From contig OZ245827.1 of the NCBI GenBank assembly GCA_965228645.1, forward strand, positions 186,001-250,000: a DNA stretch of 64,000 nucleotides. The letters are read 5' to 3'. Shown piece after piece: positions 21,001 through 27,000 of the stretch. This DNA is from Phycisphaerales bacterium. GTDB lineage: Bacteria > Planctomycetota > Phycisphaerae > Phycisphaerales > UBA1924. Position 1 is the first letter of the stretch; every line of letters starts with the position of its first letter. A program made the position numbers.

Positions 21001-24000
21001 CGAGCTCCTCAGCCGATGCGAGACGTACCGCACACTCGCCCGCACACAGCTCGTCGGATCGGGCTGACACCGGCTGAAAGCCGATCGGAGACCAGTCGAT
21101 GGCCAAGGGACAGGAATTCTCGCGCACCCAGCGCAAGATCATCGATCGCTACTACGACAACATCGACACCATCACACTGACCAAGCTGCAGGAGCTGGTC
21201 TCGGACCTGTTCCTTGCCGAGGGCAAGAAGGCGGAGACGCTCTGGAAGCGAGCCGAAGCGCTGCTCGCAAAGACCGACGCGAGGTCGTCCGACGTGCGTG
21301 AGGCGATCGAGAAGCGGGACGTTTCCAAGTTTGCCCAGATCGTCAGCGGCGCGAACTTCAAAGCCAAGAAAGAGCTCTAGCTCGTCAGCATCGCTGCGAC
21401 GATGGGGATCAGCAGCGCGGTGGGGGGGATGGTGCGCTCGGACTCGCCGAAGGCGACGAGCTCGCTTGCTGGCACCCATCGCGTCTCTGCGTATTCCCAG
21501 TTGCTGGTGCTCGCCAGGAGATCGTGGACCTTTCTCTGAAGGTCGAGCCGGACCACGATGTCGGTGCTCATGGCGATGGGATCGTCGATGAGCCCGATGA
21601 TGTCGTGCGAGACAAAGACGCCCGCGATGCCCACTTCGTCGCGGCACTCGATCTGCAGCTGCCGGATCACGGCGAACTCATCGAGCGAACGCACACCCGG
21701 TCCGGGCGGATCGAGCCCGCCCGAGGGGCCGAGCTCCCAGAGGGAGCCGTAGATGCGCGTGTCGTTGGAGCGCTTCCCAAGAAAGACATTGGGCCTGCCC
21801 TGCGCGTCGGACGCGACAAGCACGCCGGTGACGGAGAGCTGCATCACGGGCGGGTCGATCAGGCCCTTGGTCTCGGACTGAACAACAAGCCTTTTGTACG
21901 AATCGCGCCGGGCGTGGATGAGGCCATTGTCTTCGCCCGTGAAGGCGAGGATGGGGCCGTCGAAGAGTCGGGGCTTTTTAGCGCGGAGCTGGTCCCAGTG
22001 GTCCTCGATCTCGATCGGGTCCTCGGGCGCGGTCGGCGGCGCGATCGCGATGCGCACGCTGCTAAGTGGTTTGAACGTCCCGAGGGGTGTCATCCGAGGA
22101 GCTTACCGATCGGCCCGAGACCGCCGCCGCCGGCGGGGATCAGATCCTCAAGCCCCAGCCTCTTGACCTCGGCCTCGACCATCTCGCGGATGCGCCGCTG
22201 GCAGTTCTCGAGCGCGTCGTTGGTCGCCTCGGTAATGAGGCGCTCGGCCTGGGTGCGCGATTCATCGCTGCTGCCCATCGCGGCGCAGAGCGCCGGGCTC
22301 ATCTCGATGCGCTCGACACGCTGCTTGCCCGAGACCACAACCCGGCACGCGCCGCCGCCTGCGCTGCCCTCGATCCGCAGTGCGCTGATCTTCTCGCCCA
22401 GCGCCTCCGCCGCGCTCTTGAGCTCGTCCTTGCGCCCCATCAGCGAGGCGATCGCGCCCATATTCTTGATCCCAAACATCGTCTAATTCCCCTTGCCCTC
22501 GGGCCTGGCCAATGGCTTCACTTCCACGATCCGTCCGCCGAAAATCTCGATCGCGTGGCGTACGACCGGGTCATCGATCTCCACCTCGCCGGGCCTTTGG
22601 GGCGGGCGATCATCGTCCCTGCTCCCCTCGGGCTGAGCCGAGAGCTCCGCGAGGCGGCACGAGACGCTTTGCCCCGCAAGGCTCGACATGAGCTGGGAGA
22701 GCTCGGGTAGCTTTTTCTCGGCGGTGCCCCGGATGCGCTCGTCGCAGGAGAGCGTAGCCACGCCGCCCGTGAAGCTGACGAGCGACATGTCTGTCAGCAT
22801 CGCGCGCACGAGCATCGGCGCGTTCGAGCGCAGGCTCTCCCAGAGCTGCGCACCGCTGACCATCGCAGCGGGCTCGGCTGAGGCGGGGGACCGAGTCGCG
22901 GGAGCGGGCGATGGTGCTTTGGCGGTGCTTGGCGCTTTGGTGCTCGGCGTTGAGGGGGTCGGCGGCTGGGGAGGCTTCGCGACAGGGCGGGCCTGAGTCC
23001 CCGCCGCCGTCAGGCTTTTCCCGCGCCGGTTGCCTCCAGCTGGCGCACCAGCGTCGTGACGTCCGCGAGTTTCTCGCTCATCGAGAGCCTCACAACGAGC
23101 GCATCGAGCAGCGCCCGGGGGTTCGGGCTCGAACGCGTCGACCGCTGCACGCTCTCGCAGAGCGCGATCATGTGGACCAGTCCCGCGGCATCGAATCGCT
23201 GCGACCGCTGGATCTCTTCGCTGCGGGTGTCGCCGGTGAGTTCGACGAGGGAGGTCTCCGGTCCGCAGGCGCACAGGACCATCAGGTCGCGCAGGCGCTC
23301 GATGAGCGATTCCAGGAGCTGGTCGGGCCCGGTCCCGGTGGAGAGGAGATCGGCTGTGGCATCGAGCGCGGGCTTGGGCTCGCCCTCGGCGAAGGCGTCG
23401 ATCAGCTTGCCGACGAGCTCACGCGGCGCCATGCCCATCAGGCCCTCGAGCAGCTCGGACGTCAGCTTCTTCTCGCCCGAGGCCATCAGGCGGTCCATGA
23501 TCGAGAGCGCATCGCGCATGGACCCGTTGCCCAGGCGCGCGACCATCGAGAGCAGGTCCGGGTCCGCCTTGAGCTTCTCGTTCTTGACGACGTAGGCCAG
23601 GCGATCCGCGATCACGGACATCGGGATCGCGCGGAAGTCGAACCGCTGGCATCGGCTCTGGATGGTGGGGGGGACCTTCTGCGCCTCGGTGGTGCAGAGG
23701 ATGAACTTGACGTGCTCAGGGGGCTCTTCCATGGTCTTGAGCAGCGCGTTGAACGCCGCGGTCGAGAGCATGTGGACCTCGTCGATGATGTAGATTTTGT
23801 AGGGCCCGCGCATCGGTCGGTAGACGCTGCCGGCGATCAGTTCGCGGGCGTCATCGACGGAGTTGTTGCTGGCGCCGTCGATCTCGATGACGTCGGTGTC
23901 CTGGCCCGTCATGATGGCCTGGTCGACCTCGGGCGAGCCGCTGGAATTGAGGGCCTTGGCAAAGACCCGGGCCATGGTGGTCTTGCCGACACCCCGCGTC

Positions 24001-27000
24001 CCCGTAAAGAGGTAGGCGTGTGCGACGCGGTCGGCCTCGATGGCGGCCTTGAGCGTGCGGGCGACGGGCTCCTGGCCGACGATGTCGTCGAATCCGGTCG
24101 AGCGGTATCTGCGGGCAAGGGCGGTGTATGACATGCCGCGATTGTAGTGCCCGGGTCGGGTGCTCCACGGGTGTTTGTCGGAGTTCGTCCGAGTCCTATG
24201 CTGGGCGTTCCCATACAGGAGAACTCAAAGATGTACAAGGTCCTGCTCGCATCGGTGCTGTCGGTTGCTTCGGTCCTGCTGGTCGGATGCGGTGGTGGTG
24301 GCGGGGGCTCCTCCTACGAGGGGCAGTGGACCGTCGACAAGACGGAGATGAAGGCCCAGGTCGAAGTCGCTCTCAAGGAGCAGCTCAAGGGCATCAAGGA
24401 GGATCTCATCAAGCAGCAGATCGCGGATGCCAAGGCCGCCATCGATCAGTCCTCCACATCGCTCCGCCTCAACAAGGGCGGCACCTACTCGCTCGTCGCG
24501 AGGATGGGCGTCCAGGCTCAGACTCGGAATGGCACATGGAAGCCCGATGGCGGCTCCATCATCCTCTCCACGCCCGGTCAGCCCGACGCCAAAGCCCGGA
24601 TCAAGGGCGCCAAGCTGTACATCGAGAACAAGACCGGTGAGGGGCCCCAGGAAACGGTGCTGATCCGAGATCAGAACTGAATCCGACACCGCGCTCGGTC
24701 CTCAGCTATGCTGCGCACTTCCAAGGAGATATTCATGAGCCGCACTCTTCTCGGCGTACTGCTCTCGTTCGTCCTCGTCACGCTCGTCGGTTGCGGCGGG
24801 GGGTCGTCCTTCGAGGGCGATTGGTCCGTCGACAAGGAAGCGATGAAAGAGATCATGTTGGCCGGCATGGAGGCCGAGGCCGAGGGTCAGCCGGAAGAAG
24901 CCAAGAAAATGATGCAGGACATGGCCGCCTCGATGGTCGAGAGCATGAAGATGGACCTGAACCTCAAGGGCGACGGCACATTCACGGTCACCTCCGAGAT
25001 GATGGGTCAGACCGACTCGATCAGCGGCAAGTGGACCGAGTCCGGCGGCACGATCGAGATGATCGAGAACGGCGATCCGACCAAGAAAGCCACCGCCAGA
25101 ATCGAGGGCGGCAAGCTCATGGTCAGCTTCCAGGGCGAGCAAGGAGCGCCAGACAAGCTCCCGATGGTGCGCGCCAAGAAATAAGCCAAGATCGGCCGGA
25201 AAATTCGTCGGTCACGGCTTGGGCGGTGTCTTGCGCGCAGCGGCAGTTGCCCGCAGTGTGCCGCTACGGAGCCCGAGCGATGCTGCGACCGATTTTCATG
25301 GCCGTTCCCATTGCTGTTGCGATCATCCTTCCCGGTTGTTCGGGCGACGAGAGCGCCCGGTACACGGGCCTGTGGCAGTACGACCGGCAGTCACTGCGTG
25401 CGCTCGCGCACGCGAGCGCGATCGAGTCGGTCACAGCCGATGGCCAGGATCCGATCTCGTCCGAAGAACGGGCCGAGCTTGAACGATGGGTCGACGCGCA
25501 GCACGACAAATGGAACAAGACGCTCGAGTTGCTTCCCAGCGGTCGATACGTCGCGCGGTCACAGATCGGTGAGGGCAGACCCGAAGAGATCACCGGAACG
25601 TGGTCGGTCCTGGATGGCGCGGTGCGCTTGATTCAGGACGACGGCGAGGTGATGGCCACGGGTCGGATGGAGCCCGGACGACTCGTTCTTCAGGTGACTG
25701 ATGGCGAGGGCGTGACCGCGGAGATGGTCATGCTCGCCTCGAATGAGCAGGGCCAATAACCCGCCCAAGCTGTGGGCGTAATGAAGTGTCGATCCCGTCG
25801 GCGGCCAGGACACCGCTGCCCCGGTTGACGCCGCTTATGGCTGCTGCGGTCAAGCCCTGACCAGGTTCACGGGTCCTCCGTGCACCGGGCCCGACCGCCG
25901 ACGGGACCGACAAGGCCCATCCTAGGCCCTCGGCAATCCGCCCAGTCGACGGATCCCACGCCTCGGCGGGCCCGTAGACTCTTATGAGATGAGCGAACGC
26001 AGGCCCAGCCACGATCTGCACCCCTTCCAGCGCGTCGAACGACAGCGTTCGGCGATGCTCAAACTTGTCCGAGCGGGGTTCGTCATCGTCTTCGTGACGA
26101 CCGCCACCCTTGCGATCCTCAACACCGTTGAGGGCGACCCGGACCGGGTGAACCTGTTCGGGGTCGCCATCAAGGGCACGTGGCAGGTGCTGCTGACCCT
26201 GGCCCTGCTCATCGGAGGTGCCGCGTGGGCCACGGACATGCTCACGCCCACCAAGAAGATCTCGACGCTCTTTAGCATTTTCTTCGGGCTGGTGATCGCC
26301 ATGATCGCGACGTACGCGATCGGGATCATCATCAACCTGATGGTCGAGCTCTACAATCTGGGTTCGCTGGGCGATCCGATCGTGCTCACCGCCAAGGCCT
26401 TCATCGGGATCGGGCTGACCTATATCTGTATCGCGACCGTGCTGCAGACACAGGACGATTTCCGCCTGGTGATCCCGTATGTCGAGTTTGCCAAGCAGCT
26501 CCGGGGAGCCAGGCCGCTCTTGATCGATTCCTCGACGCTGATCGACGCCCGGATCACCGAGGTCGCGCGGACGGGCGTTTTCCAGGCTCCGCTGGTGGTG
26601 CCCCGTTTCATCATCAACGAGCTGCAGCTGCTCGCCGACAGCACCGATCCGATCCGTCGCGGCAAGGGTCGCCGGGGGCTCGACGTCATCGCACAGCTCC
26701 AGCGCGAGCCGAAGCTCGACGTCACGATCGACGAGACCGCAATCCCCGCCAAGAGCGTCGATCAGATGGTGCTCGAACTGGCGCGCCGAACCAACGCGAT
26801 CATCGTGACGACCGATTCGGCGCTGGCCCGCGTAGCCACGATCCACAGCGTGCCCGTGCTCAGCGTGCACCAGCTCGCGGTCGCGTGCAAGCCGATCGCG
26901 GGCACGGGCGAGGAAGTCCGGCTGCAGCTCGTCAAGCCGGGCGAGCAGGCCGGGCAAGCGGTCGGGTACCTCGCCGACGGGACGATGGTCGTGGTCAACG

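Follow-up and report, generated by a model that had tools for sequence, protein, structure and literature searches.

Described forms of dnaX recoding

Recoding at dnaX is known in more than one form. In E. coli, the -1 shift takes place at A_AAA_AAG, a heptamer of the X_XXY_YYZ type, with a 3' stem-loop and an internal Shine-Dalgarno (SD) element that lies about 10 nt upstream of the heptamer. In Thermus thermophilus, transcriptional slippage takes place at a run of nine As (A9), and closure of the other frames by stop codons has been described for this gene (PMC5009743). Tau is essential in E. coli, as given in the title of a reference in PMC4756838. A reversed, two-ORF layout has also been published as a GeneTack cluster of 17 genes from 12 genera (Antonov et al. 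2013, PMC3711429), in which gamma is the frame-0 product and tau is reached only by a -1 change at the gamma/tau boundary. Runs of A7 to A10 in 12 of the 17 were read as transcriptional slippage; the other five are absent from the poly-A list of that paper (PMC3711429) and may include a site like G_GGA_AAA. For Chlorobium phaeobacteroides, a reversed dnaX of the ribosomal kind has been proposed from unpublished data (Atkins et al. 2016, PMC5009743); its shift site is A7 (PMC3711429), in contrast to the G_GGA_AAA described below.

The gene studied here lies in a 64,000-nt stretch of a Phycisphaerales bacterium (Planctomycetota; contig OZ245827.1, positions 186,001 to 250,000), hereafter the window. 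Its layout is that of the Antonov set, but the run of 7 to 10 As that is common, although not defining, in that set is replaced by four As with an SD element and a hairpin; the comparative material also differs, in that it consists of 102 two-ORF genes among 166 genomes of the order, placed on a tree. With E. coli dnaX the window shares the type of heptamer, the internal SD, the 3' stem-loop and the position in the gene, whereas the polarity is opposite, the heptamer is G_GGA_AAA, the host has two lysine tRNAs, and Rfam RF00382, the E. coli dnaX element, has no match at E <= 10 within 22700-23300. The Thermus form, taken as at least nine As with stops in both non-tau frames, is not that of the window, which has A4 and a third (+1) frame open for 136 codons; the relatives that do resemble it are the 77 with A9-12 runs, and in 70 of them a stop lies nearby in the third frame. 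The survey's finding had presented the locus as a new, non-poly-A and ribosomal version of two-ORF dnaX, a claim that is not supported in that form, since a ribosomal reversed form had already been proposed in print (PMC5009743) and the earlier cluster of 17 contains five genes that were not listed as poly-A (PMC3711429). What is new is a tree that sets mechanism against polarity, together with an A-free C_CCN site in 30/30 genes of another planctomycete family (f16). The dnaX passages of PMC5009743 and PMC3711429 contain no G_GGA_AAA, C_CCA_AAA or C_CCN site of dnaX and no phylogeny of switching. The value of the present case lies in the comparative series and the non-poly-A sites; the layout itself is already published, and the surprise is moderate.

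Gene layout and predicted shift site

The features of the locus are listed below in window coordinates.

23010..24134, minus strand: dnaX ORF1, 374 aa, gamma-length product, frame 0 to TGA
23033..23037, minus strand: GGAGG, internal SD-like element, predicted 5' stimulator, 10 nt upstream of the heptamer
23016..23022 (contig 209022-209016), minus strand: slippery heptamer G_GGA_AAA (Gly-Lys), in phase, predicted -1 shift site
23010..23015, minus strand: spacer GCC TGA, 6 nt, containing the gamma stop
22960..23009, minus strand: GC-rich stem-loop, predicted 3' stimulator, -30.9 kcal/mol over 50 nt
22483..23022, minus strand: -1 frame (linker and tau C-terminal domain, miscalled as gene g181), 179 codons from the heptamer
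22642..22860, minus strand: folded KH-type domain, like tau domain V and DnaA domain I
22519..22575, minus strand: terminal conserved motif (P-L/V-V-R..A.E.F), which aligns with the E. coli tau C-terminal tail
22090..22479, minus strand: ybaB/ebfC

ORF1 carries the clamp-loader domains I-III, with Pfam DNA_pol3_delta2 (E 7e-37), DNAX_ATPase_lid and DNA_pol3_gamma3 (PF13177, PF22608 and PF12169, all above cut-off), and ends in GCG GGA AAA GCC TGA, so that the frame-0 stop stands just past the shift site and tau continues in the -1 frame. This frame is open for 177 codons past the heptamer, up to TAG at 22485-22483, which gives a predicted tau of 373 + 177 = 550 aa. The usual dnaX neighbour, ybaB/ebfC (Pfam YbaB_DNA_bd, E 1e-12), begins 3 nt past the tau stop with its ATG at 22479. 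In a scan of 22300-24300, neither strand showed a promoter-like site, and the coding strand showed nothing resembling a terminator.

The identity of the -1 product can be judged from a profile built on 64 single-ORF relatives, which the -1 frame matches at E 1e-20; the domain alone reaches E 2e-15, and the Pro/Ala linker alone E 3.8. Only one other match in the genome falls below E 0.001 to the tau C-terminus profile, namely a DnaA-like N-terminus (DnaA being named from sequence). The KH-type domain is predicted with pLDDT >90 over residues 1-70, and the family profile matches E. coli tau structures 5fku_E (E 0.002) and 2aya_A (E 0.004). Pfam DUF3646 is found in 29 of 84 family members, and a Pfam search with the window's own -1 frame alone returned no family. 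The terminal motif is retained even in lineages without the folded domain. On the strength of these comparisons, the -1 frame encodes the tau C-terminus, including the tau-specific domain, with weak similarity to E. coli tau itself. The survey's finding thus stands as to the 374-codon dnaX, the 177 open codons and the match of g181 to the in-frame tau C-terminus of relatives. The predicted fold is nearer to DnaA domain I (VIA Z 9.2) than to E. coli tau (6.5 to 5fku_E). When the tau C-terminal domain was modelled in complex with the C-terminal 210 aa of DnaE, the scores were 0.27 and 0.31 (mark 0.32), values that are used neither for nor against binding.

Around the heptamer, each element of an E. 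coli-type -1 site is present or predicted: in-phase heptamer, upstream SD-like element and downstream stem-loop. The GGAGG would form a duplex of -9.3 kcal/mol with the anti-SD, which is canonical in this genome (16S tail GATCACCTCCTTT), compared with -2.7 to -5.7 at control positions. The hairpin starts 6 nt 3' of the heptamer, reaches -32.0 kcal/mol when 58-60 nt are folded, and has z -3.6 relative to synonymous-codon shuffles of the tau frame. Among 378 in-frame X_XXY_YYZ heptamers in the 1708 long ORFs of the genome, the dnaX site ranks first and is the only one with a hairpin <= -25 and an SD <= -6 kcal/mol, and recomputation upheld both the predicted stimulators and the genome-wide rank given earlier. 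An Rfam search over the shift site gave two chance matches only, and RNA run X21 placed 0 reads on the locus.

The best account is that gamma is made by ordinary translation and that tau likely depends entirely on a programmed -1 shift of the ribosome at G_GGA_AAA, a reading to which we give a probability of roughly 0.85. Frame-0 ribosomes would stop after 374 codons to give gamma. Pairing of GGAGG with the anti-SD and the hairpin 6 nt ahead would hold other ribosomes at the heptamer, where tRNA-Gly(UCC) and tRNA-Lys(UUU), both encoded in the genome, could slip in tandem from GGA AAA to GGG AAA. The shifted ribosome would then continue into the linker and on through the C-terminal domain of tau. 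We infer the shift and the roles of its stimulators from phase-locked heptamer variants among relatives, SD spacing and the 3' hairpin, which leaves the earlier statement that tau is made only in this way supported as the best reading. If it is right, tau, a replicase subunit, relies on recoding across most of the genomes sampled from one whole bacterial family, and annotation pipelines break it up or cut it short.

Site classes and rival readings of tau

Across the order, an X_XXA_AAZ site occurs at this position in 166 of 166 informative genomes among the matches listed (66 further matches lie outside this sample), and within that sample the position is always a predicted recoding site. Two-ORF dnaX is found in 102 and single-ORF dnaX in 64. 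The sites fall into short ones (A4-A8, n=89) and A9-12 runs (n=77); the class statistics that follow come from related genomes, which overstates their significance. Of the 89 short sites, 88 stand in X_XXY_YYZ phase, while the long runs are spread over the phases 57/12/8. GGAG, GAGG or AGGA lies upstream of 57/89 short sites (51 at 7-10 nt) versus 12/77 long runs. The median hairpin at short two-ORF sites is -25.7, compared with about -16 at control positions, and long runs have none (z about 0); a codon-shuffle z < -1.5 is reached by 39/89 short sites and 7/75 long runs. The third frame is shut within 16 codons in 70/77 long-run genes versus 7/89 short-site genes. These features suggest that the short, phased sites with SD and hairpin are likely ribosomal frameshift sites, and that the A9-12 runs, without hairpin and with other frames mostly closed, likely act by Thermus-type transcriptional slippage. 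No clear SD motif is seen at about a third of short sites, and at roughly half of them the hairpin does not attain z < -1.5.

The first four bases of short sites are AAAA, GGGA or CCCA, each of which preserves tandem re-pairing. G_GGA_AAA itself occurs in 21/166 genomes from 8 genera, and in most of the 22 genes with G_GGA_AAA or C_CCA_AAA the stem begins 6-8 nt past the heptamer with changed sequence. Among the 102 two-ORF genes, 56 have A7-8 and 25 have A9-12. Several genera (e.g., g22, g46) retain the linker and a 25-aa motif without the folded domain.

The possibility that a true single ORF has been split by faulty assembly or by a pseudogenising indel can be set aside almost entirely. The genome is a single-contig assembly, and one relative (G007, 69% complete) has an additional, probably erroneous break within its C-terminal frame. 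However, contigs of two other runs cross the junction with substitutions yet 0 gaps (X4 record 3, 23 substitutions, depth 68; X6 record 13, 22671-23332, 5 substitutions), which speaks against an assembly error; run X2 is nearly identical and may be the source. G_GGA_AAA and the stop are identical in 7/7 informative other genomes of the genus (out of nine searched, G003 is truncated where its contig ends and G008 yielded no match), and the layout recurs in 68/75 family genomes; the survey's finding had rightly excluded an assembly error. Its 5/5 in a "sister genus" holds only in part: if g22 was meant, 6/6 have G_GGA_AAA, but their -1 frame has just 71-84 codons, the folded domain is absent, and the six genomes give no profile match in any frame. 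The tree rules out g22 as the sister, which is g47. Transcriptional slippage at GGGAAAA, with one extra A or G, is very improbable as the source of tau. It would be in keeping with the Thermus-like A9-12 runs at the same place in 77/166 relatives and with a short mixed run, T5C5, that slips in a context-dependent way (PMC5009743). The window has just four As, though, and the SD at ribosomal spacing, the 3' hairpin, the codon phase of short sites and their mostly open third frame all argue against it. That four As cannot support such slippage, as had been claimed, is a deduction and not a demonstrated point.

Similarly improbable, in our view, is translation of g181 from a start codon of its own, as a small protein without any fusion. 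An ATG at 22863 stands immediately ahead of the domain, and some ATG, GTG or TTG precedes the domain's first Trp in 48 of the 71 two-ORF genes compared; yet the SD duplex of ATG 22863 is just -2.2 kcal/mol, a start with SD <= -6 is found in only 7/71, and four relatives of the same genus (G001, G002, G006, G007) have no start codon ahead of the domain. In addition, in 94/94 two-ORF genes with a -1 match no stop interrupts the -1 frame between the heptamer and the end of the match, linker included, and a linker with a 25-aa motif alone would make poor sense as a free protein. Another view concerns efficiency: the site may be leaky, with a few percent of ribosomes shifting, gamma dominating and low tau sufficing, so that it would be no mirror of the 1:1 switch of E. 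coli. PMC4066793 has G_GGA_AAA among the -1 sites of IS elements, cites it as an inefficient heptamer in E. coli, and does not include it in 18 patterns selected as under-represented and able to shift at >0.10% when no stimulator is present, so efficiency may be well below 50%. The stability of polarity in short sites (3 changes on the tree versus a shuffle mean of 11.3), set against near-random change in the poly-A class (17 versus 21.3), is what one would expect of ribosomal sites whose efficiency lies far from 50%. This view is countered by two strong predicted stimulators, two lysine tRNAs that shift the AAA/AAG balance relative to E. coli (PMC5009743), and sites of the same kind with E. 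coli polarity in 12 genes, one of them G_GGA_AAA (G105). A leaky site seems to us a serious possibility, at less than even odds, and it is a variant of programmed frameshifting, not an alternative to it.

Polarity and site class on the tree

Polarity changes at least 22 times on the tree, site class at least 8 times, and G_GGA_AAA interchanges with other sites at least 7 times. Repeated switching of polarity, as the survey's finding had it, is thus borne out, but most of it falls within the poly-A class (16 changes when G068, G124 and G213 are left out) and little within the ribosomal one. The 15 genes that had been called E. coli-type need to be reread, as single-ORF genes are by their signals mostly Thermus-type poly-A (52/64) and E. 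coli-like in only 12/64. Homopolymer assembly error was considered as a general cause of flips in the long class and rejected because A10 runs occur in both layouts (19 two-ORF, 42 single-ORF) with different downstream sequence. It is possible for three A9 two-ORF genes and for two genes with a +1 break (G068, G124).

Taken together, and with only modestly better than even confidence, the order would always keep both gamma and tau, having swapped the recoding machine at least 8 times and the default product at least 22 times. Polarity flips would be free only under polymerase slippage and nearly frozen under ribosomal shifting, and the ribosomal site would accept any tandem-slippage heptamer (A_AAA_AAA, G_GGA_AAA, C_CCA_AAA). 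From its sequences, family f16 appears to make tau at the proline tetramer C_CCN. The order also offers natural matched pairs for asking whether frameshifting and transcriptional slippage are interchangeable in setting the tau:gamma ratio, and for what reason gamma has been retained. For instance, G103/G234, G154/G189 and G022/G027 are sister taxa unlike in polarity alone, and G107 versus G101/G113, as well as G028/G023, differ in site class only.

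The two-frame dnaX of the window and its probable shift site

Programmed -1 ribosomal frameshifting is, with a probability of about 85%, the most likely route to tau in the window, and the two-frame dnaX itself is real. The survey's finding of a gene divided between two frames at G_GGA_AAA, with a GGAGG and a hairpin, is borne out by the frames and site in the window sequence, which are arranged as follows.

24134..23010, minus strand: dnaX ORF1, 374 aa, DnaX clamp-loader domains I-III
23037-23033, minus strand: GGAGG, SD-like, 10 nt 5' of the heptamer
23022-23016, minus strand: slippery heptamer G_GGA_AAA
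from 23009, minus strand: stem-loop beginning 6 nt 3' of the heptamer (-30.9 kcal/mol over 50 nt; -32.0 over 60)
to TAG at 22485-22483, minus strand: -1 frame, 179 codons counted from the heptamer, with the ybaB start 3 nt beyond

The 3' end of ORF1 reads GCG GGA AAA GCC TGA. The +1 frame is open for 136 codons at the site and gave no match in the tau C-terminal profile search. Synonymous recoding of this peptide yields structures 14 kcal/mol less stable than the native hairpin (z -3.6). The survey had also called this the best slippery site in the genome; of the 378 X_XXY_YYZ heptamers that lie in frame within 1708 long ORFs (at least 300 codons, crude GC3 filter), it ranks first, and is the only one with both a hairpin of -25 kcal/mol or below and an SD duplex of -6 kcal/mol or below. 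The genome encodes tRNA-Gly(UCC) and both lysine tRNAs, and its 16S tail carries a canonical anti-SD. In PMC4066793, G_GG.A_AA.A is found among IS sites, yet is cited as inefficient in E. coli, which disfavours high efficiency at the window site.

The closest relatives that carry names are Phycisphaerales MAGs (68% identity). That the arrangement is not an assembly error, as the survey held, agrees with contigs from two other runs, which span the junction with 0 gaps and with 23 and 5 substitutions, respectively; a third run's contig is near-identical to the window and may be its source. An RNA run gave 0 reads over the locus.

The product of the -1 frame

A profile built solely from the C-termini of 64 single-ORF relatives (tau read in frame 0) matches the window -1 frame at E 1e-20, with E 2e-15 for the domain alone and 3.8 for the Pro/Ala linker. 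When 84 C-termini were aligned, Pfam DUF3646 (tau C-terminal) was matched in 29 members, and the alignment matched both E. coli tau domain V (5fku_E, E 0.002; 2aya_A, E 0.004) and DnaA domain I. The predicted structure, confident over residues 1-70, has a KH-type fold; this model compares with DnaA domain I at VIA Z 9.2 (rmsd 2.4, 73 aligned) and with 5fku_E at VIA Z 6.5 (rmsd 5.6, 82 aligned). By fold and by profile alike, the domain (22642-22860, minus strand) stands closer to DciA and DnaA domain I than to tau domain V of E. coli. It occurs once in the genome, and a DnaA-like N-terminus is the next match.

This region had been miscalled as a separate gene, g181, and could be translated from its own start with no fusion to ORF1. 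Such translation is improbable: the SD duplex at the ATG at 22863 reaches only -2.2 kcal/mol, start codons ahead of the domain are missing altogether in four relatives from the genus, and a start with an SD duplex of -6 or below occurs in just 7 of 71 two-ORF genes examined.

Two site classes and the switching of polarity

Searching 31 relatives and 221 order genomes gave 216 matches, the best 150 of which were listed. The 169 dnaX loci fetched comprise these, minus one unpublished genome, plus those among the 31 relatives; 66 lower-scoring matches fall outside the sample, so family f1 (75 genomes) is over-represented. Contig ends cut three loci, leaving 166 informative genomes, all with an X_XXA_AAZ site at this position. 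Their genes divide into 102 two-ORF and 64 single-ORF layouts. The C-terminal match lies in the -1 frame for 94 of the 102 and in +1 for 2; 6 genes of genus g22 have none.

The folded domain is gone from genera g22, g40, g42, g46 and g58, which retain only linker and terminal motif: at L148, L151, L153-L155 and L160 (g22) and the loci of the other four, the -1 frame is shortened to 71-121 codons of Pro/Ala linker and terminal motif, without the KH-type domain. In g22, about 410-445 nt separate the tau stop from ybaB. A +1-frame tau C-terminus is seen at L231 (G068, A9), L190 (G124, A12) and L281 (G313, no A-run); each might reflect an assembly error, +2 slippage or a separate gene.

Short sites (n=89: 21 G_GGA_AAA, 1 C_CCA_AAA, 64 A7, 3 A8) are two-ORF in 77 genes and single-ORF in 12, and long runs (A9-12, n=77) in 25 and 52. 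Heptamer phase is kept in 88/89 short sites, and long runs spread over three phases (57/12/8). An upstream SD-like motif accompanies 57/89 short sites (51 at 7-10 nt) versus 12/77 long runs. Short-site hairpins have a median of about -26 kcal/mol, against -16 to -18 at control positions; in the 77 long-run genes there is no excess of hairpin stability (z about 0). Closure of the third frame within 16 codons is seen in 7/89 short-site genes; it is closed in 70/77 long-run genes, the latter like Thermus dnaX, which has stops in both other frames (PMC5009743). The sampled genomes are kin, so p-values between the classes are overstated. The short-site pattern is as expected of ribosomal tandem slippage, and the long-run pattern as expected of Thermus-type polymerase slippage; both assignments are inferences. 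L221 (G179), two-ORF with C_CCA_AAA, nests beside A7 and A10 relatives.

A FastTree phylogeny of gamma parts (166 rows, with 8 more as outgroup; one gene tree) recovers family groups, bar one f5 row, and IQ-TREE on 66 rows retains key sister pairs. The fewest changes, which carry no direction, are 22 for polarity (shuffle mean 51), 8 for site class (56) and 7 for G_GGA_AAA versus others (20). Within short sites polarity needs 3 changes (shuffle mean 11.3, minimum 9); within long runs, 17 (21.3, minimum 16). Both polarities occur in seven disjoint clades with support of at least 95: six belong to the long class, including one that depends on G068, the doubtful +1 gene, and the seventh involves a class change. 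From these counts, clades and sister pairs, polarity switching is real but belongs mostly to poly-A genes: the repeated switching proposed by the survey stands on the tree, though little of it falls within the ribosomal class. In f1, 68/75 genomes have the ribosomal-type site in stable inversion; overall, E. coli polarity at such a site is seen in 12 genes, of which one carries G_GGA_AAA. That gene, L242 (G105), pairs the window's heptamer with E. coli polarity in a single ORF; it has an SD, a -28 kcal/mol hairpin and a -1 stop after 8 codons.

Published cases and loci outside the order

Seventeen two-ORF dnaX genes are published, 12 with A7-10, and interpreted as transcriptional slippage (PMC3711429); tau is frameshift-derived in 'many fewer bacteria', Chlorobium phaeobacteroides is named as an unpublished ribosomal candidate, and one nucleotide can be enough to reverse the gamma/tau roles (PMC5009743). 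Gamma's role is treated in PMC4756838, and the accessible part of a 2025 bioRxiv preprint has nothing on the reversed layout. A literature search, with most subscription papers outside it, found no report of Planctomycetota dnaX recoding, a switching phylogeny or a C_CCN dnaX site. The value of the present case rests on the comparative series and non-poly-A sites, not on the reversed layout itself.

Among 43 additional loci of the phylum, of which 23 were top-scoring and 20 were chosen partly for short open frames, many lack an A-rich site; where present, it is mostly A9-10 in a single ORF. Family f16 (Planctomycetota, centre G327), outside the window's class, gave 36 matches in 41 genomes. 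In all 30 genes fetched (L298-L327), frame 0 ends at 380-405 codons, directly after a C_CCN proline tetramer (28 C_CCY, 2 C_CCG, counted by eye), with no A-run at the stop site. A strong GGCCGG-type hairpin lies 3' in 29/30, and the tau C-terminal profile matches the -1 frame in 25/30. C_CCN is apparently an A-free shift site for a reversed dnaX; C_CC.U and C_CC.C are listed among tetramers shifting with a stimulator (PMC4066793).

In family f48, L279, L282, L283 and L290 have a single-ORF dnaX of only about 417-436 aa, without a shift site, whose short tau-like tail abuts ybaB. At L084 and L108 (Opitutaceae records) and L284 (G242), also outside the order, dnaX stops after A9-10 and the -1 frame is long and open; in G242 the tau profile matches it. 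Elsewhere in the window, the downstream part of a long ORF (15944-19162, plus strand) resembles a PPIase of the cyclophilin type and then a series of repeated beta-rich modules.
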